Below, piece after piece: positions 2,610 through 60,587 of a DNA stretch of 64,000 bases (position 1 is the first letter of the stretch; the number at the start of each line of letters is the position of its first letter). A program made the position numbers and the translations under genes. Under the pieces are notes generated by a model that saw nothing but the letters and a program-made list of their open reading frames with translations, searched no databases and was not told the origin of the DNA. The stretch lies in UHGV virus genome UHGV-1370141, one strand, 5' to 3'. Source of the DNA: a virus.

Positions 2610-2806
2610 GACTTCCCTCCAACACACCGCCACTCACATTCGCGTTGGTGCCAAATTGAACCCCAGGTGAGCCTAATCGCGTACGCTAAGACCACCCATA
2701 AAATCGCCGTTATACAAAATAGCACGTACAGAATGGCAACCAGCACCATGACGCTAAACCCTAAAACGCTTAGTAACTGACGCCACCAATCAGTTTGCGT
2801 AGACAA
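2606..2806 (-). CDS. Small membrane protein (66 aa, hydrophobic core)
   Basis: TTG start preceded by AAGGAG; start overlaps ATPase stop by 17 nt; hydrophobic stretch LLSVLGFSVMVLVAILYVLFCITAILWVVLAYAI. Confidence 0.4.
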   Translation of the reverse strand: MSTQTDWWRQLLSVLGFSVMVLVAILYVLFCITAILWVVLAYAIRLTWGSIWHQRECEWRCVGGKS

Positions 2807-5312
2807 TTTTTACTCCTTCGTTGTAAACCGCAGGCAGTGTTACGCCTTCAGGTTCAATAACACAGTATGCGGCTTCGTTAAGTTTTGAATGAATTTCTGC
2901 TTCGTGAGATACCACCAGTAACTGAGAGAACTCACCGGAATTCGCCAGGGTTTTAATAAACCCAACGAGGTTATTTCGGTGTTCTTCATCCATCCCTTCT
3001 GACGGCTCATCCAACAGTAGCGGATACTGATGAAGTTTCAGGGCTTTGTAAGCGGTTAAACGAAACATCAAATTAAAGATGGCTCGCTGCGCTTTCGACC
3101 CTTTCCGCACGTCAGGTACCGGTTCAGGATGGGTTTTTAACTGCACTGGGAACGTGTAGTCTAAGTCACCGTCGGTTAAGTCACACGGCATGACCCGCAT
3201 AGGGTAGGTCCAGACTTGTTCGATATATCGCGTCATCAATTCCGTGATTCTCACGATAGCGTTGTAGAAGTATTTGCGTAGTACCCCTTTCTCGGGCGAG
3301 AACGCTTGAATCATCAGTTTGTTATTGAATTGCTGTGCCTGTAAATCCGATAACTCCTTTTCTAACGCAGTAAGTTGGTTGAGCTCGTTTTCCATCTGAC
3401 GGTACCGTTCCCGTGCTGTGGTGAACGCATCCAACTTGTTTTCTCGGGCGTTTAATAACGTTTCGACCACCGTGTTGGTTAATGTTACCTTAACATCGTT
3501 CTCTAAACGCTCAAAAACCGCATTAAAATTGTCTACAGTGGCTTTAAGTTCGTTTAGATAACAAAAGGTATCATTAGCAACTGCGTGCTCTCTACGGCGC
3601 TCTGAGAGCGTTTCTGTCGCCTTACCCAAACGCTCCTGCTGGAAGGCAATTTTCTGCTGTAGAGCACCATCAACGTTACCTACCGCTGCAACTGCGTTTG
3701 CCCACTCTTTTTCCGCTTTAGCAAAACGGTGTTTCGTTTCGTGGTATTCAATTGCGGAATAAAGTTCACGATCGAACTCTGCACACAAACTGCCAAACTG
3801 ACTGCGGTTATCCGTAAAGACATTCCGCTCCTGGAGACGTTTAAAGAACAAACTCAATACCGGGTCTTTCGAGTATGTTAAAACGATTTCCCGCACTTGG
3901 CGCATGTAATTAACGTCCGACTCTAATTCCGTACGGTCTCGCAACACGGAATCAAGCTGAGTCTGTAACGTATTACGTTGCTCCATTTGTCCACGAATGG
4001 CTTCTTCCAATTCAGGCAAAGAACGACGCACGCCCGGACGGAATTTAAATTGACACTGCGGACAATCAACCTCTGCGGTTTCCAAATAGTGATTCCGTTC
4101 GTGGTTGAGGTTCTGCAATACGTTTTCAACGCGTTGTAGTCGGTCACGCAACCCAGATGAGTTCTGGTCTAAGGTCAACAGTTTCTCTTCCAGTACGTTC
4201 AACCGTTCCGTTGATTTAATAGCATCCAGCGTTGTTCCTAAACGTTGTCCCCAGACACGCGCATCCGTCGCTGCTTTAAGCTGGTCAATGTTAACGGTCT
4301 CCGCAAACAGTTCAGGGAAAAGATGTTCGGTGTCCCACTGCTTTAATAACTCACGCAGTTTTGCAACCGTGTTCTTTAACCCTTCGTGATTCCGCATCAG
4401 GTAATCTTGGCGGGTAGACTCGTCCATCAACAGAGACAAATCTTTGTTTAGCATAGACAGCTCTGTTTCAGCAGAGACCACCGCTTCACGGGCAGTGGCT
4501 TCAACGCGTCGTGCTTCCTCTACCTGTTCTTCCGTAGGTAATCCACCACGGTGTTCCAAGATAGCATTAATCGGTGCTTCGATTTTAAGCAATAGCGATT
4601 GAATCGTTGCCACCGTAACGTCACGATTCAGGCCCGGCAGTTGTTCAATCTGTTTGTTGAGTTCACGTAAATCTGCTTCTAATGCTTTTAACCGTGTTGC
4701 TAACTGCTGACGTTCTTCCTCGTTATCAATCACGCGGGTACGCAACTCTGCAATCTTGCGGCTGGTGATTTCAATACCGCCGTTTAACATCGTCAGGTTT
4801 TTTCGTAAACGTTGATAAAAACCTAACGCGTAAGTTAAGTCTGACGTACTTAAACGGTAGAACCACTTACGACGCAGTTCCGTTCCTGCATCCGTTAAAA
4901 GCACTTCTCCGTTCAGTAACTCTTTAATCTCTTTTGTAATGCCCGTGATTTCTTCTACACGAGAGTTATACACTTTCGCATTACCTTGTTCGACGATTTT
5001 GGTACCCGTCGTCAGGTTCTCGATATCGCAAACCAGTGAGTTGCCTTTACGTGCAACCTTAAATTTGTAACGATGGTCGTTAACCAAACAGATGTTGGTG
5101 TAAGAACCCCCGTCACGGAATTCGGATTTCGAAGGTGCGATAGGTAGAAACACGGACAGTAAGCTGGTCTTACCGCAGCCGTTACCACCGAGGATAATAG
5201 TGGTTGGGGAATGGATAGTAAAATCGAAGGTTTCGATTTCGTGTAGTCCCATCCCGGTAAACCCTTTAAGTACAATACGTTCAACTTTTAACATGTCCAC
5301 CTCCATATTCAC
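2790..5312 (-). CDS. SbcC/Rad50-like ATPase (Walker A, coiled coil with CxxC zinc-hook-like motif, Walker B)
   Basis: N-terminal GGNGCGKTS; long coiled-coil region with central CPQC; C-terminal LLLDEPSEGMD and VVSHEAE. Confidence 0.65.
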   Translation of the reverse strand: MNMEVDMLKVERIVLKGFTGMGLHEIETFDFTIHSPTTIILGGNGCGKTSLLSVFLPIAPSKSEFRDGGSYTNICLVNDHRYKFKVARKGNSLVCDIENLTTGTKIVEQGNAKVYNSRVEEITGITKEIKELLNGEVLLTDAGTELRRKWFYRLSTSDLTYALGFYQRLRKNLTMLNGGIEITSRKIAELRTRVIDNEEERQQLATRLKALEADLRELNKQIEQLPGLNRDVTVATIQSLLLKIEAPINAILEHRGGLPTEEQVEEARRVEATAREAVVSAETELSMLNKDLSLLMDESTRQDYLMRNHEGLKNTVAKLRELLKQWDTEHLFPELFAETVNIDQLKAATDARVWGQRLGTTLDAIKSTERLNVLEEKLLTLDQNSSGLRDRLQRVENVLQNLNHERNHYLETAEVDCPQCQFKFRPGVRRSLPELEEAIRGQMEQRNTLQTQLDSVLRDRTELESDVNYMRQVREIVLTYSKDPVLSLFFKRLQERNVFTDNRSQFGSLCAEFDRELYSAIEYHETKHRFAKAEKEWANAVAAVGNVDGALQQKIAFQQERLGKATETLSERRREHAVANDTFCYLNELKATVDNFNAVFERLENDVKVTLTNTVVETLLNARENKLDAFTTARERYRQMENELNQLTALEKELSDLQAQQFNNKLMIQAFSPEKGVLRKYFYNAIVRITELMTRYIEQVWTYPMRVMPCDLTDGDLDYTFPVQLKTHPEPVPDVRKGSKAQRAIFNLMFRLTAYKALKLHQYPLLLDEPSEGMDEEHRNNLVGFIKTLANSGEFSQLLVVSHEAEIHSKLNEAAYCVIEPEGVTLPAVYNEGVKIVYAN

Positions 5313-34025: not shown

Positions 34026-34949
34026 ATGGCGACCAATGCGGAACCAAAATTATCAGATCAGTTATTTGACAATCCAACAATATTAGCCGTTATTACTACA
34101 TCCAAATGTAATCTGGACTGTAGTTTCTGCGGCGGAGCCTATTACATGAATCGTGAAGATTCTTCTCGAGAGTTTCAACGTGACCGAATTATGGAGGCGT
34201 TAGAAGCTAACCCAACAATCACCGAGATTCAATGGACGGGTGGTGAGCCTTTGTTAGCCACTCGTAAAATTGAGGCGTTTGTTGACGAGTTAAAAGTAAT
34301 TCGTCCAGAGCTCAAACATCAGTTATATACCAACGGTTTAAAGATGCGTAAAACGCATCTCCCGTTGTTAAAACAATTTGATAATGTGTATGTTAGCATC
34401 GACGGGTTTGAGTTGTCTGAACGCCCTTTTAAGCGTTTTATTAACGATGGTTGCTACGAAGCTTTAGAAGTAATGCATGAGCTTGAAAATGTTCATACAT
34501 GGGCCGTTTTAACTCGAGAACAGTTGGGTAACAAACGGTGGCATGAAGACATTATTGAGCTTCATAATGCGATCTATCACTACGGTTATCGTACCATGAC
34601 GTTGCTGTTAGACGCGAATATGCCAAAACCGTTATCTCCCGATCACGTTATGAACTTTATTTACGGGTATTTTAGAATTCAGGAAAATATAGAAAGACTG
34701 AATGTTTCCAACTCGAAAAGGTGTGACTATGTCGTAAGCAAAGTTTTTGATGGTGGGTGTAACGTATGCAGCAATAGTTTATGGTTAAGAGCAGATGGAA
34801 CCGAATATCAGTTGCAAAATGCCCCGAGATTATTAGAATCGGGATGTAACCAATTAGCTTGTTCCATCGGGTTAGAAGCCTACGAGTATATTCGACGAGT
34901 GGTTATGGCCAACCGTAATAGTGGAGTATTAAATGAACCAAGAAAATAA
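34026..34949 (+). CDS. Radical SAM enzyme (paralog B)
   Basis: ATG at 34026 has GGAG RBS (track ATG 34011 has none); CNLDCSFCGG, GGEPLL; identical DNA tracts shared with paralog A. Confidence 0.75.
   Translation: MATNAEPKLSDQLFDNPTILAVITTSKCNLDCSFCGGAYYMNREDSSREFQRDRIMEALEANPTITEIQWTGGEPLLATRKIEAFVDELKVIRPELKHQLYTNGLKMRKTHLPLLKQFDNVYVSIDGFELSERPFKRFINDGCYEALEVMHELENVHTWAVLTREQLGNKRWHEDIIELHNAIYHYGYRTMTLLLDANMPKPLSPDHVMNFIYGYFRIQENIERLNVSNSKRCDYVVSKVFDGGCNVCSNSLWLRADGTEYQLQNAPRLLESGCNQLACSIGLEAYEYIRRVVMANRNSGVLNEPRK
34620..34702 (+). repeat. 83-nt tract identical to 32102..32184
   Basis: See paired repeat. Confidence 0.7.
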
Positions 34950-36255
34950 TTACCCGAAACAGTTGACTTACCAGATTGTTACAAACTTGTCGTGTAATTT
35001 GGACTGTGAGTATTGTTACGAGCGTAAATATCCCCGCAATAACAAAGCAGCAGATATTGTAGATTTTCTTCATGCCTGTTTCGAGCGTGATAAAGATTTA
35101 CCAAACGTAGAAGTCGTCATTGACATTATCGGCGGCGAGCCGTTTATGCAGCCTAAGCTTCTAATGGCCGCTTTCGAAACAGCCGAGCAGTTGTGTGAAG
35201 AACATAAACGCCCGTTTATGTTTAGTATCTCTACTAATGGGACATTATTAGATAGGCCGTTGAACAGGGAAATTATTGAACGTTGGAAGGACAGACTTTC
35301 TATCGGGGTGTCTATTGATGGGTTACCTGAGTCGCACGATAAGTACCGTATTTTTACAACGAGTCGCGAAGGTTCTTACGAGGCCGCTGTACGTGGTTAC
35401 AATTATCTAAAAGAAGTAGGTATCGCGGAGCTTGGGGTTAAAGCGACATTTACTTTGGAAACGCTCCCACATTATGCGGCGGGTATGAAATCCCTAATCG
35501 ATTTGGCTGGAGGTGGAACCATTTCTGGTAACGTAACCTTCGAAGACATTATGCCACGGAGTATGGCTACGTCGATAGCGCTACAAATGATGGATGTAGT
35601 CGATTATTGGGTTGAAAAGGGTTTACACACCAACCCACGTAATACCCTATCACATATCATCCCGGAAGGGTTAGATTTCGACACTATCTGGGAACCGAAC
35701 TGGCGGGATCAGCTACTTTACAACGATACTGTACGTTTAAACCCGGAACGCTTGCGTCCGTTCTGCGGGACATTAACTCACATGACTTGTTTAGGGTTTG
35801 ACAGGAAGATTTTCGGTTGTAACCGTTTCATGTCGACTGTAACGTCACGTTCTGCGGTATTTGAGTTAGTCGGTCGTGAGTTTGTTAGCTTAGACGGTGG
35901 GAAACTGCTGGAAGAGATTCAGACGCAATACACCAACTATCCTGAGACGTGCTTAGGTTGTCCGATGAAACACGCTTGTGGTAGCTGTGCAGCAGCTTCC
36001 TACGAGAATGGGGAAGGGACGTTAGAAGACCGTAAAGCGTATCACGCTGAACGTCGTCAATGTGGTTGGACAACTGCAAAATTAATGGTCGCGGAATACT
36101 GGAAACAGAAGATGGGTACAACATCTGTGAAGGATTTCCACGATAATAGCATGTGTTACTGCCCTCGCTGTGTACGTGAACGTGCCCAAAAAGAAAAACA
36201 ATTGAGAGAAGCCAAAGATGAAGCCAATTCTGATCCACAATATTACGAAGCGTAA
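34933..36255 (+). CDS. Radical SAM enzyme with C-terminal SPASM-like Cys cluster
   Basis: CNLDCEYC, GGEPFM; C-terminal FCGTLTHMTC...CLGCPMKHACGSC...CYCPRC; start overlaps upstream stop by 17 nt. Confidence 0.75.
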   Translation: MNQENNYPKQLTYQIVTNLSCNLDCEYCYERKYPRNNKAADIVDFLHACFERDKDLPNVEVVIDIIGGEPFMQPKLLMAAFETAEQLCEEHKRPFMFSISTNGTLLDRPLNREIIERWKDRLSIGVSIDGLPESHDKYRIFTTSREGSYEAAVRGYNYLKEVGIAELGVKATFTLETLPHYAAGMKSLIDLAGGGTISGNVTFEDIMPRSMATSIALQMMDVVDYWVEKGLHTNPRNTLSHIIPEGLDFDTIWEPNWRDQLLYNDTVRLNPERLRPFCGTLTHMTCLGFDRKIFGCNRFMSTVTSRSAVFELVGREFVSLDGGKLLEEIQTQYTNYPETCLGCPMKHACGSCAAASYENGEGTLEDRKAYHAERRQCGWTTAKLMVAEYWKQKMGTTSVKDFHDNSMCYCPRCVRERAQKEKQLREAKDEANSDPQYYEA

Positions 36256-41315: not shown

Positions 41316-41795
41316 TTATTTTTTCTTCTTAGCGCGTGATGGCTTAGCTGGCGGTGTTTCAACAGCCGGTTTACGTGCAACACGCACTGTAAAACCACCA
41401 ACCCAGGTCAGACACTCAGGACGGAAGAAAATACCGTGTTCGATTGCGCTACCGTCCAACGGTAACTCACCAACCTGTTCTACCCATACATCGTCTTCTG
41501 TAAGGGTTAGGCTATACTGTTCGTTAATTACGGGCAGTAGGTCAGCGGTAGTCGTTGCAGACTCCACTAACAGTTTCGGTAATACGTTCAGGAAATACAA
41601 ACCTGCGTCAATGCGGTTATACTGGAACGTTTGTTCGTTAGTGTAACCGAGATTCTTAATTGACGCAACTGTGATTTCGGTATTGTACGTACCGGTGGTT
41701 ACGACCGGGTCACCCAGCGTGACTTTGGTGGTGTCGAACTCAGCGTCTGGGTTAGCCTTTTTAATAAGGTCGAAGATAGTTTCTTGATTGGTCAT
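41316..41795 (-). CDS. Hypothetical protein (Lys-rich C-terminus)
   Basis: 159 aa; AGAGGA RBS; C-terminal PAKPSRAKKKK. Confidence 0.55.
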   Translation of the reverse strand: MTNQETIFDLIKKANPDAEFDTTKVTLGDPVVTTGTYNTEITVASIKNLGYTNEQTFQYNRIDAGLYFLNVLPKLLVESATTTADLLPVINEQYSLTLTEDDVWVEQVGELPLDGSAIEHGIFFRPECLTWVGGFTVRVARKPAVETPPAKPSRAKKKK

Positions 41796-41808: not shown

Positions 41809-42657
41809 TTAATCTAAGAATCCCGGTAAGACCGGATTAGTCTGCGCTAATTCAATCTTCGACTTCGGACGATCGGTGCCGTTAAAGTGGATTAACAGAT
41901 TACCGGTCAGGTTAGAACACAGCGGGCTGAGCGTCAGCACCAACACACGCGTGAACTTCGTATTTGCGCCTTCGTAACCTGCGGTTGGACCATCGTAAAT
42001 AATCTTCGCACCATACAGGTTGTTAGCCGCGTTCTTAGGTACACTTACCCATTTCTCATCAACGACGTTAGCCAGTTTAGTGGCTAACTCAGCCAGGTCG
42101 ACGGTGTCGTTGATAGTAATCGGGTCAAGGTAATCTTTTTCTGCGGTGAAATCAATCGGGTGAGAATAAACCGCAGCGTTACCTTTCTTAGTAGACGGAT
42201 ACTCTACCAGATTCTCTAATTGAGTAACTGGTAACAGTTCAGTCAGGTCAATAGGATCACGCAGCGTAAGTGTTACTACACCGCACCACTCGTAAGATTT
42301 CTCGTTAGCGGTAAGCTGATGGGTTTCACCTTCAACTTTTGCGTCAACGATATCCGAGGGTAAAATATTTAGGTTGTATTTTGCGTTAATCGCATTAAGC
42401 AAATCCGATGCGGTTACCACACTGTCGTTACCGAACACCAACTCACCGGTTAGGTAGTCAGGTAAATTACGACGGTGGTAAGTCACGGTTAAAGTAGTAG
42501 ACTCATCGCCTTTGAGTTTAGAGGTCAGAACCACCTGGGTATCAACCCCAGTACCGGTAGGTTCTCCGATATCAACATCACTGAAAGTCAACGGTGGACT
42601 AATATTGTTTTCAGTGTTGATGAGTTTTAGCAGTTTCTGTTTTGACGTAAGAGACAT
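41809..42657 (-). CDS. Hypothetical protein
   Basis: 282-aa ORF. Confidence 0.55.
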   Translation of the reverse strand: MSLTSKQKLLKLINTENNISPPLTFSDVDIGEPTGTGVDTQVVLTSKLKGDESTTLTVTYHRRNLPDYLTGELVFGNDSVVTASDLLNAINAKYNLNILPSDIVDAKVEGETHQLTANEKSYEWCGVVTLTLRDPIDLTELLPVTQLENLVEYPSTKKGNAAVYSHPIDFTAEKDYLDPITINDTVDLAELATKLANVVDEKWVSVPKNAANNLYGAKIIYDGPTAGYEGANTKFTRVLVLTLSPLCSNLTGNLLIHFNGTDRPKSKIELAQTNPVLPGFLD

Positions 42658-49589: not shown

Positions 49590-49636
49590 GAAAAAATAAA
49601 AAAGGTAGTAGGGGCTAAGCCCCTACTACCTAAAAT

Positions 49637-50257
49637 TTATTTCATTCCGTTCTGAGAAAGTGTTGTCCCTGCAAGATGCTTAATAACGATCTTGACAGGC
49701 AAATTACTATTCTCGTACTGTACTTCGGTTTCAGACAAATCGGTGATATCGACAACTTTAGAAGGTACTTTCGCTAAGACAACCCGAATGGTGTGGGTTA
49801 TCGTACTGGCTGTGGTCTTTGTATTACTAATGTAGAAGTACGCATCAATAATACCGCCGTCTTCTGCCAGATAAACCAATTTATTTTCCAACAGACACTG
49901 GGTATAAATTGACACTCCAGATAATTGCGAAATCCCCAGTCTATTATTAACGTCAACTGTTGTTTTGCAGATTACCGCACCACCTGTCAACGTTTTTTCT
50001 ACCACCATATTTCCCGATAAGGTTTTTGCATCCATTTTTGGTACAATCGGATGAGTGCCGTCAACAAACAACCCATCGCTGTTAGACTTAAGGATGTTAT
50101 TCGCCGACGGACTCACTGTAACCTCGCCACCCCCTAATTTCTCAATCGGGAGTTGGTATTCAGTTTGTTCCTTAGACGCTAAGACTACTACACCCGTGAT
50201 GTCTTCTGAAAGTGTCTCCAGTTCATGAATGCGCACCTTTCCTACCAGTTCAGCCAT
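49637..50257 (-). CDS. Short receptor-binding / fiber protein with conserved N-terminal anchor domain
   Basis: N-terminus MAELVGKVRIHELETLSEDITGVVVLASKEQTEYQLPIEKL matches N-termini of 52032..56513 and 59597..60058. Confidence 0.55.
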   Translation of the reverse strand: MAELVGKVRIHELETLSEDITGVVVLASKEQTEYQLPIEKLGGGEVTVSPSANNILKSNSDGLFVDGTHPIVPKMDAKTLSGNMVVEKTLTGGAVICKTTVDVNNRLGISQLSGVSIYTQCLLENKLVYLAEDGGIIDAYFYISNTKTTASTITHTIRVVLAKVPSKVVDITDLSETEVQYENSNLPVKIVIKHLAGTTLSQNGMK

Positions 50258-50772
50258 TAGTGGCCTCCGAATGTTAAGACACGGTTATCTGCGGTAACGA
50301 TTAAATCGTTGTCTTTTACTACAGCGGCTTCTTCATCGTTACCGAAAACCAGAACGGAGAATTGGCCTTTATAACCTAACGAGTTGGGTGAAACCTGTAA
50401 CGTTACAGCGTCTTTCCCTACGGTAAATGATTCGTCGGTAAGATCGTCGGGTTGTAAATTACAACCACAAGCCGCGTTAATTCCGTCGATTAGATCGTGT
50501 GCGGTAAAGCCATTACCGGAAACCTTTACCAGAATAGGTTGCTGGTTTAACCACCGCTCTGCGGTTAAACGGTTGTAATAAATCTGTAACGTTCTGTTGT
50601 CCGGACGTTTTATCTTTACAACAGCAGTGGTGTCACGATCCATTTCGTTACTGGTCTTTACGTCGCTGACTTCAACCTCGTTCTCTTGCAGGTCGAGCTG
50701 GAGGTCATGGTTAACCAGTGAAATAACCATGTTAAGTGAAGTTAACGACAAATCTGGCGTGAATTGTTCCAC
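50257..50772 (-). CDS. Hypothetical protein, paralog of 60024..60587
   Basis: GTG start with GGAGGT RBS; N-terminus FTPDLSLTSLNMVISLVNHD vs YVPDLSLTSAELVVALINHD; TAATG overlap with downstream gene. Confidence 0.55.
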   Translation of the reverse strand: MEQFTPDLSLTSLNMVISLVNHDLQLDLQENEVEVSDVKTSNEMDRDTTAVVKIKRPDNRTLQIYYNRLTAERWLNQQPILVKVSGNGFTAHDLIDGINAACGCNLQPDDLTDESFTVGKDAVTLQVSPNSLGYKGQFSVLVFGNDEEAAVVKDNDLIVTADNRVLTFGGH

Positions 50773-50827
50773 GTATGGTTACCTCCTATGATTGGGGAGA
50801 CGTAAAATGTTGGCTAAAAACATTTCA

Positions 50828-50836
50828 CCCCCCCCC
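50828..50836. repeat. C9 homopolymer in conserved intergenic context TCA-C(n)-GATT
   Basis: Read directly; about 55 nt upstream of 50257..50772 start. Confidence 0.8.
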
Positions 50837-50870
50837 GATTACGTTTTCAAGCACACTCGCTTGAAAATTA

Positions 50871-51377
50871 TTAACTGATTTTGAAATCTCTTAACGTACC
50901 AGTTGATCTCATCACGTTTTGAAAAGCAGTGCTGATGTTATTAGTCCAGTAGTAATGCTGTCCGTTAATAACCTGCTGATAGGTCAGTGCGCAAGTGTTA
51001 CCGCCTAGATTTACAGTGATGTTAGAGGCCCTGCCGCCTTGTAAGTAAACCGCTAAACTAGGCCTTGCGTTGCCAACTACCGTCGTTAACTGTAATTCGA
51101 TACCTACTAAAGTTCCCACCCCGCAGTTACCCGCGTTTTGAATGGTCCCCTGATTTTTCTGGTTTAACGGCCAATTTGGTCCTACTGCGCCCCATTTCTT
51201 ACCTAAAGAATCTCTATATGCGGCAGTTGCAATTTTACAGCCCATAGATCTTCCCACCATTTGACTCATCATAAAAGGTCTACTCAATCCTAATTTACTA
51301 CCCGCAGCGCTCATCCACTGTTCGCCCGTTTCATTCCTAGCTGAAGATCCGACCCATCCTGACGCTACCCCCCCCAT
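50871..51377 (-). CDS. Putative fiber-tip adhesin-like protein (paralog of 51394..52032 N-terminus)
   Basis: AAGGAGGG RBS; N-terminal GWVGSSARNETGEQWMSAA shared with neighbour; G8 run spans the start codon (ATGGGGGGGG). Confidence 0.5.
   Translation of the reverse strand: MGGVASGWVGSSARNETGEQWMSAAGSKLGLSRPFMMSQMVGRSMGCKIATAAYRDSLGKKWGAVGPNWPLNQKNQGTIQNAGNCGVGTLVGIELQLTTVVGNARPSLAVYLQGGRASNITVNLGGNTCALTYQQVINGQHYYWTNNISTAFQNVMRSTGTLRDFKIS
51368..51375. repeat. G8/C8 homopolymer overlapping the start codon of 50871..51377
   Basis: Plus strand C8 at 51368-51375 = minus-strand ATG-GGG-GGG-G. Confidence 0.8.
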
Positions 51378-51393
51378 CTACCCTCCTTTTTAA

Positions 51394-52032
51394 TTAAACA
51401 CGTGAACCGTATATTGCACCTACTGCGTCCCATCTTGGCGCATTACCAGTAACAGCTTTACCAGCTGCTCCGCCGTTATATTCTGTACCGTTACCATGAG
51501 TATTACATCTTCCTCCAGCAGCACCGACATTACCACCCGAACCGCCTGTATATGCACTAAGAGACCCCTCACCAACAGATCCTCTACCAGGAGCGGAAAT
51601 AGTACCAGCAGCTGCACCGGAACTCATATGAGAGGAAGACCCACCAGCACCGCCTGGCGAGTTAGAACCACCGTTGCCTCCTCTGCCGTATACTGTAACC
51701 CCAGGATTGATGATGAGTGTAATATACGAATTTGGAAGATTGCTAGGGAATTCTAAACAAGGAACCCCGCTACTATAAGACACTAAATCCCCTGTAATGG
51801 TCACAACGACAGCAGTAGAGCCTAAAGAACGTAAATAGTTAATAAGAGTATCCTTATTATAGCTATGGTTAGCACCAATAGAATAATGGACCTCTTTTGA
51901 TTTTCCCGCCAATTGCGACATCCAGCCTGGAACCGGCACACCAAGTGTGCGCATCGCGCCAGACATCCATTCGTTACCAGCTTCAGCTTTTGCTGAAGAA
52001 CCAATCCAACCACCTACGCCGACAACTGCCAC
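51394..52032 (-). CDS. Glycine-rich adhesin-like protein (gp38-type architecture), putative
   Basis: GTG start coupled to fiber stop; conserved N-terminal domain then Gly-rich tracts (GRGGNGGSNSPGGAGG..., TGGSGGNVGAAGG). Confidence 0.5.
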   Translation of the reverse strand: MAVVGVGGWIGSSAKAEAGNEWMSGAMRTLGVPVPGWMSQLAGKSKEVHYSIGANHSYNKDTLINYLRSLGSTAVVVTITGDLVSYSSGVPCLEFPSNLPNSYITLIINPGVTVYGRGGNGGSNSPGGAGGSSSHMSSGAAAGTISAPGRGSVGEGSLSAYTGGSGGNVGAAGGRCNTHGNGTEYNGGAAGKAVTGNAPRWDAVGAIYGSRV

Positions 52033-55000
52033 TAGGATCTCCCTTTGATTTCGTTAACCTCTTGACGCAACGCTTTCATACCCTCTACTAACAGCGCAAT
52101 AACGCCATTGTAGTTTAGACGTAAACGTTTTTCGCCTGAAATGGCATCATCATCCTCAGACACAAGTTCAGGTAACGCTTCTAATGCGTCTTGAGCAATT
52201 AGACCTACAGAAGTTTGCCAACCGTCATCCGGATGCTGAATTTCGTACAAATAACCAGTTAGTAACTCTAACCGATCCAAAGCCTTATCCAGCTTCACCA
52301 GATTACGTTTGTTACGACGGTCAGAACGAATCTGTACGTCGTTAAACGAACCGTTACCGCTGCCAGTAACGTTATGACCAAAGGTTACTTGGCCATTAGC
52401 GTTATTAAAATACAACGGACGTAGTCCGTTCCAGGAACCCGTTGCAGCTTGTCCGGCGTCGGTTACTAAGAAATAGGTATTGGCACCATCGTTACGTAAC
52501 ATAAAGCCGTAGTTGCCGTAAGCGATTCGAAAATCAGGGTACTTAGTGACCAATTTACCGTTAACGGTTAAATCGCCACCTATAGTACCGCCCCCTGACG
52601 GTAACGCACCGATGTCACCAGCGTTAGGTTTGTTGTGTGTGCTGTAAATCAGATAGACGGTACCGTCTGTTAGTCCTGCGGGTTTATTAGCCGTATAGCT
52701 TGGCGATGTGTGAATCGTTACGTTGGCATTACTAGTGTAGTCCCACTGAATATTAACACCGGTGGCGTAATTACCTATTTCAACATAAATATCGTAAGTG
52801 TCACCAGATGTATTCACCCATGCAAAATTAGTGAAGCCGACTGAGGTCAGTCGCCATAACGCACCAGTAATACCTTTTGGATTCCCATTTCCTGCACGCA
52901 GAACCAGCTCAGAGATACCTGCTTGATGCGGGGAACCAACGTTAAACCCTGCACCACCAATCAGGCTTATGTAAACCACGGAACTGGCTTGTGGCATCGT
53001 TACAGTTGCTAGTTTGAACCATCCGGCACCACCATTAAAAGACACAGTTGTTGTGTTCGCGGCACCAACATTTCGTAAGAATTTTCTCTTATCTGGAATA
53101 TCGGCACCGTTCTGTTTCTTCTGCAATGACCCACCGGCCAATTCTACAGTTTGGCCAAGATTTAAACTTTCAGCCGTTATTTCGATGTTTTTAGTGCCGT
53201 CAAACGCAATACCGTTGATGGTTCTTGCAGTTTGCAACTTTGTTGCAGTGGCCGCGTTTCCGGTGGTCGACTGATTACCCGTTTGGTTTACTCCAGGAAG
53301 ATTAACGTCTTTCGTCCCATCGAAAACCACACCACCGATCCTACGTCCTGTTTGTAACTTGGTAGCGGTTGCTGCATTACCTGTCGTATTCTGGTTGCCT
53401 TGCTGGTTAACCCCCGGTAAATTGATATCCCCAGTACCGTCAAAGGTAACGCCGCCGATTCTGCGAGCGGTTTTCAGTTTCGTCGCGGTAGCGGCGTTGC
53501 CGGTAGTATCTTGATTACCTGTGGTATTTACGCCAGGAATACTGTCACGGGCAGTATAAACTTGTGCCCAATCTGACCACGGCGCATCTGCCGTATCACG
53601 TCGACTACGAATATAAACTGGCGCGTGCGCACCACTCGTGCCCGACCAACCAATTAACAACTCGCCTTCGCCTAGCGCAGCAGAACCACCCAAATGCAGT
53701 AAGTTACCATAAGCGGTCGGATAACCGTTATTGTAAACTTCGTACATCTGAATACCAGGCGTACCTTTGTTTGAACCAGTCAGTGCAGTAACACGTCCAC
53801 GTCCTACCAACGTGTTGATATTGATGTCTCTAGACCCATCAAATTTCACACCGTTGATGTTTCGAGCCGTTTGTAATTTGGTTGCGGTTCCCGCGTTCCC
53901 AGAGGTGTTTTGATTACCTTGTTGGTTAACACCTGGGAGGTTAACGTCGCCGCTACCGTCGAAGGCGACCCCACCAATTCTACGTGCCGTCTTTAATTTA
54001 GTGGCGGTTGAAGCATTGCCTGTTAACTCACCTGCTAACCCTTTTGCAAAGGTCTGTTTTTCTGCCCAGGTGTGCGCTGCGTTCAATACAGGCATCTGGC
54101 GTGGCGTAATTGTTCGACTACCTTTCTCACCAGCGATACGAACAGCAAAGAAGCGATAGTTGGCAGTAGACACCGTACTACGCCAAACCAACATGCTCCG
54201 ACCGGTGCCGGTGTCATCAGACGGCCCTACAAGGATGTTAACTAAGTTACCGTCAATCACACCCCAATCCATTCCCGCAGGAATATTTTTCATGGTGTTC
54301 AACGGTGACGTTAACATCTGACCGGGAACGAAGTCGTAGGTTTGCCAGTCTAACGGGTCAACCTTAGCAGCTACACCACCAATGCCTAAAACTAACGGAA
54401 GTGAATACGAGGTGAAAACCTCTCGCCACCCACTCCAAATGTTACCCGTACGGATACGTTGGAATTTACGACCTTTAGTTTCTCTACCCGTGCCGTATGT
54501 GGTATAATTCTGTTCGACCCCTGTACCGTCTAAGCGTAAGGTAACTTCACAAACGCCTACCACGGTTTCGCTAGAAGAACCGATAAGTGGACCGTTAGTT
54601 GCCTCACCAGTGACACTGAAACGACCCGGTTTAACGAGATCGTTAAAATTGGCTTTAAAGAAAGCACCGTCAGTCTGATAACCAACCTGAATCCAATCTT
54701 CCCATTGTGGGTTTGATGAATCCCACGTTGCAGTCAAACCACGGACATACATTGTGCCACGACGCGTAGTGTATCGCTGCAACCGTCCGAAAAGACCACC
54801 TTCCATTACTTCTAGTACGCCTTGCGCGTTACCGCCTTCTTCAGGGTAATGCCGGTCGAACACCGCTAACGAACTGGACGAGTTCCGCCAGTTACCCATA
54901 TGCTCAGCGCCACCCAGAGAGTTCAAGTCTATAGAGGTAGACAGTGGGCGAACACCAGTGGTTACCATTCTCCACGGTGACCAGGGTCCATTAGTTCCGT

Positions 55001-56513
55001 TCCACACACCTGACAACATACGGTTGTACACGTTACCATTACGACAGGTAAAACGTTGCGCGCCACTGTAGTTGCCCGCTTTATACACTTCCAGATAACC
55101 GACTGCACCGTCTTCTGGGAAGTGTTTTGCCATCGACGCATTGGTTGATGTCGACTTAGACCACGTTCCTGTGTAATTAGCATCTGGAGCAAATGTGTTA
55201 ATATCAGCATCTACAGGCATTTCGCCACGGAAACGCAGGTAGGTATCAGGAGATAGGCCGATGTTGCGAGCAAAAGTTTCTTTATCTGGGATATCAGCGC
55301 CGTTAGAGTTTTTCTGTAACGCACCATTCGCTTTATCGACGGTAGTTTTCAAACCCAGGAAGTTAATGATATCCGCCGTCGACCCTTTCGCTAACAAATC
55401 GCGCGCAGTCGAGGTGAAATCCGCTAATCCCACCCGATTACTACCGGTAAAGTAAGGGAGTTTGTTTGCAGCGGTGGTGACTGCGGCAATCGCTGTCAGT
55501 AACGGACTTAACGGCTGTTTACCCGCGAGTTGGTTCGTTATCGTTGTCGCAAAGTTAGGATCGTTTCCTAACGCGGCTGCAATTTCTGATAACGTATCTA
55601 ACGTCTCGGGTGAAGAGTCCACTAATTCAGCAATCGCTTGCCGTACCCATGCCGTCGTTGAGACTGTCGTGTCGTTAGAATCCGCAGCAGGAGTCGGAGC
55701 TTTTACTACGCCAGTAAACGTCGGCGAGTGACGGTTTGCTTTTAACTGCAAATCATCATTTAACTGCTTAACCGTTGACGGTGTAGCCGCTTCCGTAACC
55801 GAGTCACTGGTTAAGGTATTATTAAGTTTAACGATACCTTTACTGGACGTTGTTGCATCAACGTTACCTTTTGCAGCGATTTCCTCTGCACGCTTAGCGG
55901 CTGCCTCAGAACGCGTTGCCGCATTCTCTGCGGTTTCTTTGTCTGAGGTAACTTGCGTTGCTGTAGCCTCTACAGAGGCTTTTGACGACTCTACTGACGC
56001 GACAGCTTCGTTAACTGCCGTAAGCGACTGTTCTACTTGACCGGCTTGTGTGGCAACAGTTTCTGCTTTCTTCGTAACGGTAGTCACCGCTTGTGTGACG
56101 TTGGCCTCGCTTGCCGCTACCGCTTGTGCTTTCTCATTAACGGACACAACCTGGGTATCTACCGCCGTTTTCGCGGCTAACACTTCAGTGTGTTTTGTAC
56201 CGACCTCAGTTGCTTTTTCGGTTACAGTTTGCGCTTGTTGAGCAACCGTAGCCGCAACGGTGTCAGTTTGTTGTTTTGCTGTTTCTGCTAAATTCTTTGC
56301 TTGTGTAGCCTGAGTTGCAGCTTCTTGTGATTGTGTTGCTGCTGCTTGTGCATCAGACACCGCATTACGCACGGTGTCAATATCTGCAACGATCTCACGG
56401 ACTGGTAACTTATAATCTTTCTCATCTTTGGAGAAAAGTAAAACACCTTCACCGATATCCCCGGTGTATGGACGTAAGTCGTGTAAACGAATTTTCTTTA
56501 CCGCTTTAGCCAT
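52032..56513 (-). CDS. Long tail fiber (1493 aa) with N-terminal anchor, coiled-coil stalk, 40-aa repeats and C-terminal intramolecular chaperone (S74-like) domain
   Basis: Anchor MAKAVKKIRLHDLRPYTGDIGEGVLLFSKDEKDYKLPV; fiber motifs ATPSTVKQLNDDL and PTFTGVVKAP; repeats TGNAATATKL.TARRIGGV.FDGT.D.NLPGVNQ; C-terminal SDRRNKRNLVKLD...GLIAQDALEALPELV chaperone-like. Confidence 0.75.
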   Translation of the reverse strand: MAKAVKKIRLHDLRPYTGDIGEGVLLFSKDEKDYKLPVREIVADIDTVRNAVSDAQAAATQSQEAATQATQAKNLAETAKQQTDTVAATVAQQAQTVTEKATEVGTKHTEVLAAKTAVDTQVVSVNEKAQAVAASEANVTQAVTTVTKKAETVATQAGQVEQSLTAVNEAVASVESSKASVEATATQVTSDKETAENAATRSEAAAKRAEEIAAKGNVDATTSSKGIVKLNNTLTSDSVTEAATPSTVKQLNDDLQLKANRHSPTFTGVVKAPTPAADSNDTTVSTTAWVRQAIAELVDSSPETLDTLSEIAAALGNDPNFATTITNQLAGKQPLSPLLTAIAAVTTAANKLPYFTGSNRVGLADFTSTARDLLAKGSTADIINFLGLKTTVDKANGALQKNSNGADIPDKETFARNIGLSPDTYLRFRGEMPVDADINTFAPDANYTGTWSKSTSTNASMAKHFPEDGAVGYLEVYKAGNYSGAQRFTCRNGNVYNRMLSGVWNGTNGPWSPWRMVTTGVRPLSTSIDLNSLGGAEHMGNWRNSSSSLAVFDRHYPEEGGNAQGVLEVMEGGLFGRLQRYTTRRGTMYVRGLTATWDSSNPQWEDWIQVGYQTDGAFFKANFNDLVKPGRFSVTGEATNGPLIGSSSETVVGVCEVTLRLDGTGVEQNYTTYGTGRETKGRKFQRIRTGNIWSGWREVFTSYSLPLVLGIGGVAAKVDPLDWQTYDFVPGQMLTSPLNTMKNIPAGMDWGVIDGNLVNILVGPSDDTGTGRSMLVWRSTVSTANYRFFAVRIAGEKGSRTITPRQMPVLNAAHTWAEKQTFAKGLAGELTGNASTATKLKTARRIGGVAFDGSGDVNLPGVNQQGNQNTSGNAGTATKLQTARNINGVKFDGSRDININTLVGRGRVTALTGSNKGTPGIQMYEVYNNGYPTAYGNLLHLGGSAALGEGELLIGWSGTSGAHAPVYIRSRRDTADAPWSDWAQVYTARDSIPGVNTTGNQDTTGNAATATKLKTARRIGGVTFDGTGDINLPGVNQQGNQNTTGNAATATKLQTGRRIGGVVFDGTKDVNLPGVNQTGNQSTTGNAATATKLQTARTINGIAFDGTKNIEITAESLNLGQTVELAGGSLQKKQNGADIPDKRKFLRNVGAANTTTVSFNGGAGWFKLATVTMPQASSVVYISLIGGAGFNVGSPHQAGISELVLRAGNGNPKGITGALWRLTSVGFTNFAWVNTSGDTYDIYVEIGNYATGVNIQWDYTSNANVTIHTSPSYTANKPAGLTDGTVYLIYSTHNKPNAGDIGALPSGGGTIGGDLTVNGKLVTKYPDFRIAYGNYGFMLRNDGANTYFLVTDAGQAATGSWNGLRPLYFNNANGQVTFGHNVTGSGNGSFNDVQIRSDRRNKRNLVKLDKALDRLELLTGYLYEIQHPDDGWQTSVGLIAQDALEALPELVSEDDDAISGEKRLRLNYNGVIALLVEGMKALRQEVNEIKGRS
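53165..53560 (-). repeat. Three or more tandem 120-nt (40-aa) repeats inside the tail fiber gene
   Basis: Period 120 nt seen at 53211, 53331, 53451; diverged at DNA level. Confidence 0.6.
53810..54045 (-). repeat. Two further copies of the 40-aa fiber repeat
   Basis: Protein repeats ...GNASTATKLKTARRIGGVAFDGSGDVNLPGVNQQGNQ / ...GNAGTATKLQTARNINGVKFDGSRDININ. Confidence 0.5.
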
Positions 56514-59596: not shown

Positions 59597-60058
59597 TTAG
59601 TAACCCGCTGCAAGAAGAGAACCTTTCCAGGTGGCACCCCCATCAAGGGTATAAAGCGACAGAGTGTCTTCCGCATTTGCCGCGTAGGATAAAACCGGTT
59701 GTGCACCGTGAGGCCATTTAACGTTTTCAGGCCAGGTTACTTTATTCGCCCCTGTTCCTTGCTTAATCGTTAGCATTACTTCGAAACGGGTATTTTCTGC
59801 AACGTTGGTAAGGGCTGCGAACGTCACTGTAGTGTTAGGATCGTTTAACACCAGAATAATGTCAGTGCTGGTATTGAAATCCAACGTGGCGGCATTATTC
59901 GAACCGTTAACCGTGGTGACTGTCGCAACCGGGGCTAACTTATCAACATCAATTTTATATTCTTTATTGTCTTTGCTATACAGCAGTACCCCGCCTTGGG
60001 GTGTGCCTGCGTAGCTTTCGAGCTCATGGAGTCTCGTCTTCTTCAGTGCTGTCGCCAT
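59597..60058 (-). CDS. Anchor-domain protein (154 aa) with conserved receptor-binding-protein N-terminus
   Basis: ATG at 60058 with GAGG RBS (track start 60109); N-terminus MATALKKTRLHELESYAGTPQGGVLLYSKDNKEYKIDV. Confidence 0.55.
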   Translation of the reverse strand: MATALKKTRLHELESYAGTPQGGVLLYSKDNKEYKIDVDKLAPVATVTTVNGSNNAATLDFNTSTDIILVLNDPNTTVTFAALTNVAENTRFEVMLTIKQGTGANKVTWPENVKWPHGAQPVLSYAANAEDTLSLYTLDGGATWKGSLLAAGY

Positions 60059-60587
60059 CTGGAACCTCAAATGTAAGAACGGCATCGTCACCAATACAGA
60101 AGATTGCATCTTCTTCGTTTGCTAATGCCCGTTCGGTTGTATCAAACAACGTCACCATAAACGCGTTCATCCACGCAGGAGAATCGTCGGCAACGTTAAC
60201 GGAAATGGGATCGTTACCTAAAGTGATATCTGAAGCACGTAAATCCTCGGGTTGTAAGTTCGTTCCGCAGAATTCATTTACAACACTAAGAATGTCACGA
60301 ACGTTGTCTTCAGTACCGTCTAACGAAATCAGAATGGGTTCATACGTTAATACTTCATCTGCGTCGAGTCTGTCGTAGTAAACCACAACAGACGCGCCAT
60401 CCGGTTTTCTGATTTTACTGATTTCGGTAATGGTGTTACGACGCGAAGTTGTTGGGGATGGGTTTGTTACAGTTCCGCTAATACGGATTTCGTTTAGTGT
60501 AAGCTGTAACCCGTTATCATGATTGATTAAAGCGACCACTAGCTCTGCTGAGGTCAGACTCAAATCAGGTACGTATGGTGTGGCCAC
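60024..60587 (-). CDS. Hypothetical protein, paralog of 50257..50772
   Basis: GTG start with GGAGGG RBS; shared PDLSLTS N-terminus; acidic C-terminus. Confidence 0.55.
   Translation of the reverse strand: MATPYVPDLSLTSAELVVALINHDNGLQLTLNEIRISGTVTNPSPTTSRRNTITEISKIRKPDGASVVVYYDRLDADEVLTYEPILISLDGTEDNVRDILSVVNEFCGTNLQPEDLRASDITLGNDPISVNVADDSPAWMNAFMVTLFDTTERALANEEDAIFCIGDDAVLTFEVPDGDSTEEDETP

Follow-up and report, generated by a model that had tools for sequence, protein, structure and literature searches.

The DNA analysed, called the window throughout, is a stretch of 64,000 nt from the viral genome UHGV-1370141. The phage is an uncultured SPN3US/Asesino-like jumbo phage of about 225 kb that has been seen in metagenomes of the human gut as well as in read sets from Salmonella and E. 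coli; the conserved 1001-aa tail protein encoded in the window was 71-77% identical to its counterparts in Erwinia phage Asesino and Seoulvirus phages. Downstream of the latter protein's homologue, the cultured relatives Asesino and Seoulvirus Lh1B carry nothing comparable to the ~6.9-kb block found here (49637-56513), in which genes for a long tail fibre, a gp38-type adhesin, a second adhesin (adh2), a DUF7941 protein and a 206-aa protein (p206) follow one another, and the block is thus specific to this lineage (Table 1). An earlier note on this DNA had reported two reading frames downstream of the long fibre, and both are indeed present, on the minus strand.

The TAG stop of the fibre gene and the GTG start of gp38 share one base (TAGTG; TAATG in close relatives), an overlap typical of translational coupling and in line with the coupling that had been claimed for this junction. 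The start of adh2 lies 16 nt past the gp38 stop and is preceded by a strong Shine-Dalgarno sequence, AAGGAGGG; a good ribosome-binding site stands in front of both adhesin genes. A terminator scan found no terminator between the fibre, gp38 and adh2, and since a promoter scan returned fewer sigma-70-like sites than shuffled controls did, we claim no promoter. Further downstream, the intergenic region after adh2 contains a run of G residues whose length ranged from 9 to 11 across relatives, and the DUF7941 gene, which is part of the inserted block, was kept in all sister loci. p206 is probably a short fibre-like protein, in which a Pfam search found neither a chaperone domain nor a tip motif.

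Table 1. Features of the fibre and adhesin block in the window, listed in the direction of the minus strand.
Feature	Position	Strand	Description
Long tail fibre, 1493 aa	52032..56513	(-)	Native N-terminal anchor, repeat-containing shaft, Gp34_trimer-like domain (aa 1302-1368), C-terminal intramolecular chaperone
Intramolecular chaperone (Peptidase_S74) domain, 97 aa	52035..52325	(-)	Starts at SDRRNK motif
Last 12 fibre codons (ALRQEVNEIKGRS)	52035..52070	(-)	Contain the gp38 Shine-Dalgarno; part of the imported cassette
gp38-type adhesin, 212 aa	51394..52032	(-)	GTG start, N-terminal attachment region, truncated glycine-rich specificity domain
Junction of in-frame 144-nt (48-aa) deletion	51652..51653	(-)	From alignment to the 260-aa allele
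Second adhesin (adh2), 168 aa	50871..51377	(-)	Gp38_N at aa 3-41 plus beta-sandwich C-terminal domain, not glycine-rich
Structured intergenic region 3' of adh2	50773..50870	(-)	Two hairpins and a G9 run; RNA fold -36.8 kcal/mol, z=-4.3
DUF7941 virion-structural-like protein, 171 aa	50257..50772	(-)	Pfam DUF7941 7e-17; phrog_2935 'virion structural protein'
p206, 206-aa protein	49637..50257	(-)	N-terminal anchor as in the long fibre, 16/41 identities
Operon terminator	49603-49631	(-)	13-bp stem and T-run, 3' of p206

The long tail fibre and its tip

Pfam matches along the fibre were to Phage_fiber_2, Gp34_trimer and Peptidase_S74 (aa 1397-1451), the last of which is a self-cleaving intramolecular chaperone. 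The N-terminal ~40 residues are native to the phage, and the same anchor also occurs in p206, in a 153-aa fibre protein, likewise of the window, and in Asesino gp140. At the other end of the protein, the last ~135 aa aligned to gp37 of Salmonella phage S16 (6f45_A, E=1e-13), the tip of which was crystallised together with gp38 (6f45). Because this chaperone-bearing tip is homologous to S16 gp37, the layout of fibre plus adhesin is the canonical T2/S16 arrangement.

In T-even phages, gp37 sheds its chaperone domain, after which one gp38 monomer per fibre attaches (PMC9569957; bioRxiv 10.64898/2026.05.12.724579). By analogy with the T-even/S16 literature (PMC9569957), the chaperone domain of the window fibre is presumed to be auto-cleaved, leaving a mature tip that would end in ...GNGSFNDVQIR. 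The motif at the presumed cleavage site, GNG(S/N/D)FN(D/N)V(Q/Y)IR followed directly by SD, was kept in fibres that partner gp38, adh2 or both, in a comparison that took in jumbo phages, the phage-plasmid CMS-2020a, an Stx podophage, Winklervirus Kc304 and RB16. Such conservation fits a common docking mode in which Gp38_N domains would attach to the matured tip.

Two adhesin classes with a common N-terminal domain

By family, the 212-aa protein is a genuine gp38 adhesin of the T2/S16 type, homologous in sequence and probably also in fold to solved gp38 proteins. It matched Pfam GP38 (PF05268) at E=5.3e-45 (154.4 bits, cutoff 25), Gp38_N (PF21721; Pfam gathering cutoff 25 bits) at E=3.8e-14 over aa 1-42, which is the full length of the profile, and phrog_2056 at 4e-69. 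Its sequence matched S16 gp38 (6f45_D, E=2.3e-30) and PP01 gp38 (9v85, E=1.2e-15), and its AF2 model reached a Foldseek TM of 0.74 to 6f45_D and also matched the PP01 gp38 structure 9v85. The proposed likeness to gp38-family adhesins holds for the sequence and probably for the fold, an attachment domain joined to a polyglycine-II sandwich. The glycine-rich gp38 layout that had been read into this gene stands only in part: the protein is about 21% Gly and belongs to the GP38 family by its Pfam match, but the layout is incomplete, a 48-aa block of the 260-aa allele being absent from it.

Like T2/T6/S16-type gp38 (PF05268 + PF21721; 6F45, 9V85), the 212-aa protein carries both Pfam domains, with an N-terminal attachment region and a glycine-rich specificity domain that ends in the conserved ...APRWDAVGAIYGSRV, and its gene sits directly behind a fibre with a self-cleaving chaperone, with overlapping stop and start. 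It differs from those proteins in being found in an SPN3US/Asesino-like jumbo phage rather than in the Straboviridae, in its length (212 aa against about 260, owing to the in-frame deletion), in being followed by a second adhesin gene, and in lying behind a fibre tip of a type that elsewhere partners the other adhesin class. The 3' third of the gene was 85-92% identical at the DNA level to gp38 of RB49-like and Mosigvirus phages. As to receptors, dependence on OmpA is known for FL18 and FL20, and use of OmpA or O antigens for RB49-like phages (PMC12032242; PMC9569957); this likeness offers only a lead to the receptor that the ancestral gp38 allele may have used.

The sole Pfam match of adh2 was to Gp38_N (PF21721, E=9.6e-19, aa 3-41). 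Against phrog_1121 ('tail fiber adhesin') it aligned over aa 3-162 of its 168 residues (4.6e-44), and the same PHROG was matched by RB16 gp38, by the Stx-phage 'receptor recognizing protein Gp38' and by both of the corresponding genes of Kc304. In hhalign, a profile of the adh2 family that already includes RB16-like sequences aligned to RB16 gp38 over 165 columns. Identity was 56-60% to the adhesins of the Stx podophages 75/02 Stx, P13374 and phi191 and of phage-plasmid CMS-2020a, and 39-45% to those of T4-like PEi20, PEi26 and Kosakonia phage 305. On this sequence evidence, adh2 is a member of the RB16/RB43- and Stx-phage-type 'gp38-like adhesin' family. Like the RB43/RB16 and Stx-phage adhesins (PHROG 1121; PF21721 only), it is ~170 aa long and joins Gp38_N to a C-terminus that is not glycine-rich; unlike them, it is carried by a jumbo phage and is parted from the fibre by an inserted gp38 gene. 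BamA was considered as an adh2 receptor by way of the Stx-phage literature and was dropped, the searched papers tying no receptor to the protein.

The earlier note had also described a common N-terminal domain joined to divergent C-termini, and this description proved sound. Both proteins fit GW.GSS...E.G..WMS.A, align with 20/38 identities in BLASTP (E=2e-10) and match Gp38_N, whereas pairwise BLASTP found the C-termini of gp38 and adh2 to be unrelated. Judged from the two sequences, the shared N-terminal motif is far beyond chance. Among 18 distinct relatives of adh2, mean column entropy was 0.26 over residues 1-45 versus 0.74 over residues 46-168, making the C-terminal part about three times more variable, in line with the suspected hypervariability across relatives; the variable positions were not clustered in predicted loops (entropy 0.75 vs 0.73). 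Host-range mutations of RB43 gp38, which is closely related to RB16 gp38, lie in its C-terminal domain (PMC3157838). Along with the entropy contrast, this suggests indirectly that the C-terminal domain may set host range in this family. A single-sequence search with the adh2 C-domain against 1.8 billion representatives gave 10 representative clusters at E<=1e-3, which says little beyond the apparent narrowness of this family.

Many records of homologues are labelled 'distal long tail fiber assembly catalyst', in keeping with a role for one or both proteins as fibre-assembly chaperones that, like T4 gp38 or the Tfa proteins of Mu and P2, are not kept in the virion. We find this scarcely credible. 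T4 gp38, from which homologues inherited the label, is a different protein, and T2/T6-type gp38 is reported to have no relation to T4's version of the gene (PMC3157838). Moreover, the fibre has an intramolecular chaperone of its own, the solved S16 complex shows the gp38 family bound to the mature tip (6f45), and neither protein matched a tail-fibre-assembly Pfam family at E<=0.1.

Distribution of the adhesin genes and the gp38 deletion

We compared 14 related jumbo-phage loci, the window included, and found adh2 in 14/14 and gp38 in 10/14. The fibre was followed by adh2 only in L006, L007, L008 and L015, by a 260-aa gp38 and adh2 in L009 and L017, and by the 212-aa gp38 and adh2 in the window, L003, L004, L010 and L011; in L005, L014 and L016, a fibre with a different, CMS-2020a-like tip was followed by a 261-aa gp38 and adh2. 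Where gp38 was absent from a sister phage, adh2 started 3-4 nt past the stop of a fibre with the same tip. An adh2-type gene lay 3' of a chaperone-motif fibre in 44 of 45 loci, either directly or with only gp38 between; the sole exception (L043) has a truncated adh2. In Stx-like prophage and phage-plasmid loci with upstream sequence, the adh2-type gene always stood alone behind a chaperone-bearing fibre. Two CMS-2020a phage-plasmid records carry different adhesins at the same site, gp38 in one and adh2 in the other, which is direct evidence that the two classes are exchangeable alleles. The idea of exchangeable receptor-recognition modules is borne out by these alternative alleles, by the presence or absence of gp38 among sister jumbo phages and by the entropy contrast within adh2.

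The same distribution bears on whether the two adhesins might belong to separate fibres, with gp38 capping the 1493-aa fibre and adh2 either serving a fibre outside the window or working with the DUF7941/p206 pair. The genome is about 225 kb, of which only 64 kb is visible, and several proteins share the N-terminal anchor, so multiple fibre types exist. Nevertheless, such a division of labour seems highly unlikely to us given the position of adh2 immediately behind the same-tip fibre in gp38-less sisters and behind a chaperone-bearing fibre in all but one of the 45 loci. Within the 64-kb window there was no second chaperone-motif fibre, the three largest other open reading frames had no Pfam match at all, and the absence of a chaperone domain and tip motif from p206 also speaks against it as a partner.

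The window fibre was nearly identical to the fibres of adh2-only sisters up to ...LLVEGMK and then diverged from them (SLRRELKELKEK in L006-L008); the inserted cassette consists of the last 12 fibre codons together with gp38. Since the window fibre tip is nearly identical to that of sisters carrying only adh2, adh2 is best understood as the adhesin cognate to this fibre and resident at the locus. The cassette itself showed a dS of 0.04-0.10, compared with 0.3-1.2 for the flanking fibre and 0.4-2.3 for adh2, and in L011 its neighbours were a fibre of 79% identity and an adh2 of another type. The low dS of the cassette and the varied fibre and adh2 backgrounds around it argue for recent horizontal spread of gp38, the deleted allele included, rather than decay, and point to gp38 as a recently spread add-on.

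adh2 is under strong purifying selection, with dN/dS of 0.05-0.11 at dS 0.4-1.0 within type, genomes that also carry gp38 included; because dN/dS was low in those genomes as well, adh2 has stayed functional alongside gp38. For gp38, dN/dS between the window and L009 was 0.09, and among the short alleles it was 0.23-0.48, at a dS of only 0.03-0.04 and with very few substitutions, which leaves the latter values uninformative.

Aligned to the 260-aa sister allele (P0014/L009), the 212-aa gp38 was without one 48-aa block and was 99% identical elsewhere. In the full-length allele, an 11/12 direct repeat, CGGTGC(A/T)GGTGG, lies on either side of the deleted stretch and codes for the Gly-Ala-Gly-Gly in two of the glycine-rich motifs; the 48 residues were probably lost by recombination between these two repeats. 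Metagenomic contigs contained further gp38 deletion variants of odd length (167, 176 and 199 aa), which suggests that such deletions arise readily. The published scheme of the gp38 specificity domain has five glycine-rich motifs (GRMs) separating four hypervariable segments (HVSs) (Trojet 2011). By approximate mapping to this scheme, the deletion joins GRM1 to GRM3, taking out HVS1, GRM2, HVS2 and most of GRM3. The window gp38 therefore falls short in one feature that defines the family, the complete array of five GRMs and four HVSs. In T6 gp38, single deletions of GRM2, GRM3 or GRM4, or of HVS1, HVS2 or HVS3, yielded no viable phage (PMC3157838).

With HVS1, GRM2 and HVS2 gone, each of them reported as essential in T6, the 212-aa gp38 might be a crippled remnant that may dock on the tip and cannot bind a receptor, leaving adh2 alone functional; the phage would tolerate the remnant because it has another adhesin and other fibres. 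AF2 confidence is in keeping with this, the pLDDT being 80-92 over the N-terminal 120 residues, 46-63 in what remains of the glycine-rich domain and under 50 where the deletion joins, as are the presence of adh2 in every sister locus, where gp38 is optional, and the further deletion variants in metagenomic contigs. However, the gp38 reading frame is intact, its overlapping start and ribosome-binding site are preserved, and a cap that took up fibre tips without binding a receptor would carry a cost and be expected to disappear under selection. In addition, the short allele occurred in three or more diverged genomic backgrounds and in several independent samples, and its copies were 98-99% identical even though the flanking genes stood at dS 0.7-2.3, a pattern that fits spread or retention better than decay. 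We regard a crippled gp38 as possible but not probable.

Proposed capping of the fibre tip by gp38 and adh2

The explanation we favour, with a probability of roughly 0.7, is that the products of both genes are small, monomeric adhesins that bind receptors and cap the distal tip of the upstream fibre, adh2 as the resident and gp38 as the add-on, giving rise to mixed tips. The fibre would form trimers aided by the chaperone domain at its C-terminus, which would then cut itself off between ...GNGSFNDVQIR and SDRR. One adhesin monomer would dock on the exposed tip by means of its ~45-residue Gp38_N, and its C-terminal domain would touch the host surface. gp38 would have arrived as a mobile cassette, bringing with it the last 12 codons of the donor fibre gene. 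From then on, gp38 and adh2 would most likely compete for the same fibre tips; virions would contain both proteins and bear a mixture of tips, receptor use would be wider or hedged, and the deleted gp38 may still bind a receptor.

Several observations count against this explanation. The tip of the window fibre is one of those that partner adh2, unlike the gp38-partner tips of CMS-2020a or L005, so the docking of gp38 on it is an assumption drawn from the conserved last ~11 residues. The gp38 of the window has lost HVS1, GRM2 and HVS2 together, when the loss of any one of them is nonviable in T6 (PMC3157838), and the low AF2 confidence predicted for its truncated glycine-rich domain may weigh in the same direction. 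The higher dN/dS among the short gp38 alleles (0.23-0.48) is a further point against it, albeit one based on few substitutions. That one fibre type is capped combinatorially by two unrelated modules with a universal docking domain, an RB16/Stx-type adhesin and a functional 'mini' polyglycine gp38 of altered specificity, so that every virion would show both kinds of tip, strikes us as rather doubtful; if true, the five-motif core would not be obligatory.

A comparable tandem is found in the cultured Winklervirus Kosakonia phage Kc304, in which two consecutive Gp38_N genes follow a gp37 with Peptidase_S74, as here; both Kc304 copies belong to phrog_1121, whereas the window has two different classes. 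Tandem Gp38_N genes are also probable, from the annotation, in Serratia phage LC53 (PMC10132071). In the literature that we searched, no functional study of the tandem adhesins of Kc304 or LC53 was found. A tblastn search for phages with two Gp38_N copies, made with a 46-aa N-terminal peptide of which low-complexity masking hid residues 1-13, returned 195 records with one matching place each and was too insensitive to count tandem loci.

Together, both genes belong to described adhesin families, and only the tandem layout and the internal deletion set this otherwise ordinary locus apart. Novelty is confined to the host lineage, a jumbo-phage one, to two different adhesin classes being stacked and to an allele with a GRM-to-GRM deletion that circulates in nature; current understanding is unchanged, with known families reaching into a further host lineage. 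As the locus shows, the Gp38_N docking system passes freely among very different phages: fibres taken to shed their own chaperone and then to accept a small monomeric adhesin occur in T-even phages, Stx podophages, phage-plasmids and human-gut jumbo phages of ~225 kb, and two different adhesin classes can stack behind one fibre. Host-range prediction and phage engineering could draw on the conserved tip motif plus Gp38_N as a plug-and-play interface, and the naturally spreading gp38 deletion allele provides a cheap test of whether all of the glycine motifs are essential.

Length variation in the adhesin genes

Besides the 212-aa gp38, the glycine-rich adhesin of the window, further natural lengths of this protein were found in the homologues P0016 (176 aa), P0034 (199 aa) and P0064 (167 aa). 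Each of the three carries a different internal deletion between glycine motifs; deletions of this kind in gp38 therefore recur. The P0016 contig is 169 kb, the size of a T4-like phage, and P0034 and P0064 come from short contigs of 11-13 kb.

G runs occur both within and behind the gene for the second adhesin, adh2. In the window the 5' run, directly behind the start codon, is eight G long and encodes one glycine more than in several relatives, where it has five G; with one G fewer the frame would stop at once (ATG GGG GGG TAG). In the intergenic region after adh2, the run varies from 9 to 11 G across contigs that are otherwise near-identical, a variation that could be assembly noise or could reflect a slippage-prone tract.

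Adhesin loci and possible hosts in other records

CMS-2020a, a phage of ~108 kb that is probably a phage-plasmid, is represented by two records (L001, CP053388; L013, CP054387) with unequal fibres of 1576 and 1123 aa, and the same locus in the two holds different adhesin classes, gp38 and adh2. The RB49 gp38 gene (NC_005066, 45367-46143) lies among small hypothetical genes with no adjoining fibre gene, which shows that the adhesin gene is separable from its fibre.

Near-complete copies of the jumbo phage (contigs of loci L005 and L008 and of the proteins P0003/P0004) were found in sequencing runs and assemblies whose labels name Salmonella enterica or E. coli isolates, which suggests either that these bacteria carry the phage, in pseudolysogeny or a carrier state, or that the data are contaminated. 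Elsewhere in the window are genes for a radical-SAM protein (440 aa, 34933-36255) and an SMC/RecN-like ATPase (840 aa, 2790-5312).

Organization of the fibre block

The block at 49637-56513, comprising the fibre, gp38, adh2, a DUF7941 gene and the 206-aa protein gene, is absent 3' of the homologous tail protein in cultured Asesino (Erskinevirus) or Lh1B (Seoulvirus), and thus looks like a lineage-specific insertion.

Features of the fibre region and related paralogues in the window
Feature	Position	Strand	Remark
DUF7941 paralogue	41316-41795		
DUF7941 paralogue	41809-42657		
DUF7941 paralogue	50257-50772		
DUF7941 paralogue	60024-60587		
Anchor of 206-aa protein	50135-50257	minus	
Anchor of 1493-aa fibre	56391-56513	minus	
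Anchor of 153-aa 'tail fiber protein'	59906-60058	minus	
Intergenic region after adh2	50773-50870	minus	two hairpins (z=-4.3), G9 run
Start of adh2, with G8 run after the start codon	51364-51377	minus	ATGGGGGGGGTAG

DUF7941, a virion-structural-like family, has four paralogues in the window. Two of these lie directly upstream of a protein with a shared N-terminal anchor, an arrangement that resembles a repeated module of DUF7941 plus anchored fibre. This anchor of ~40-50 aa (MA..V.K.R.H.L...) is common to the 1493-aa fibre, the 206-aa protein and a 153-aa 'tail fiber protein', and it recurs at the N-terminus of Asesino gp140 (58% over 36 aa). The shared anchor suggests that one baseplate site takes several fibre types.
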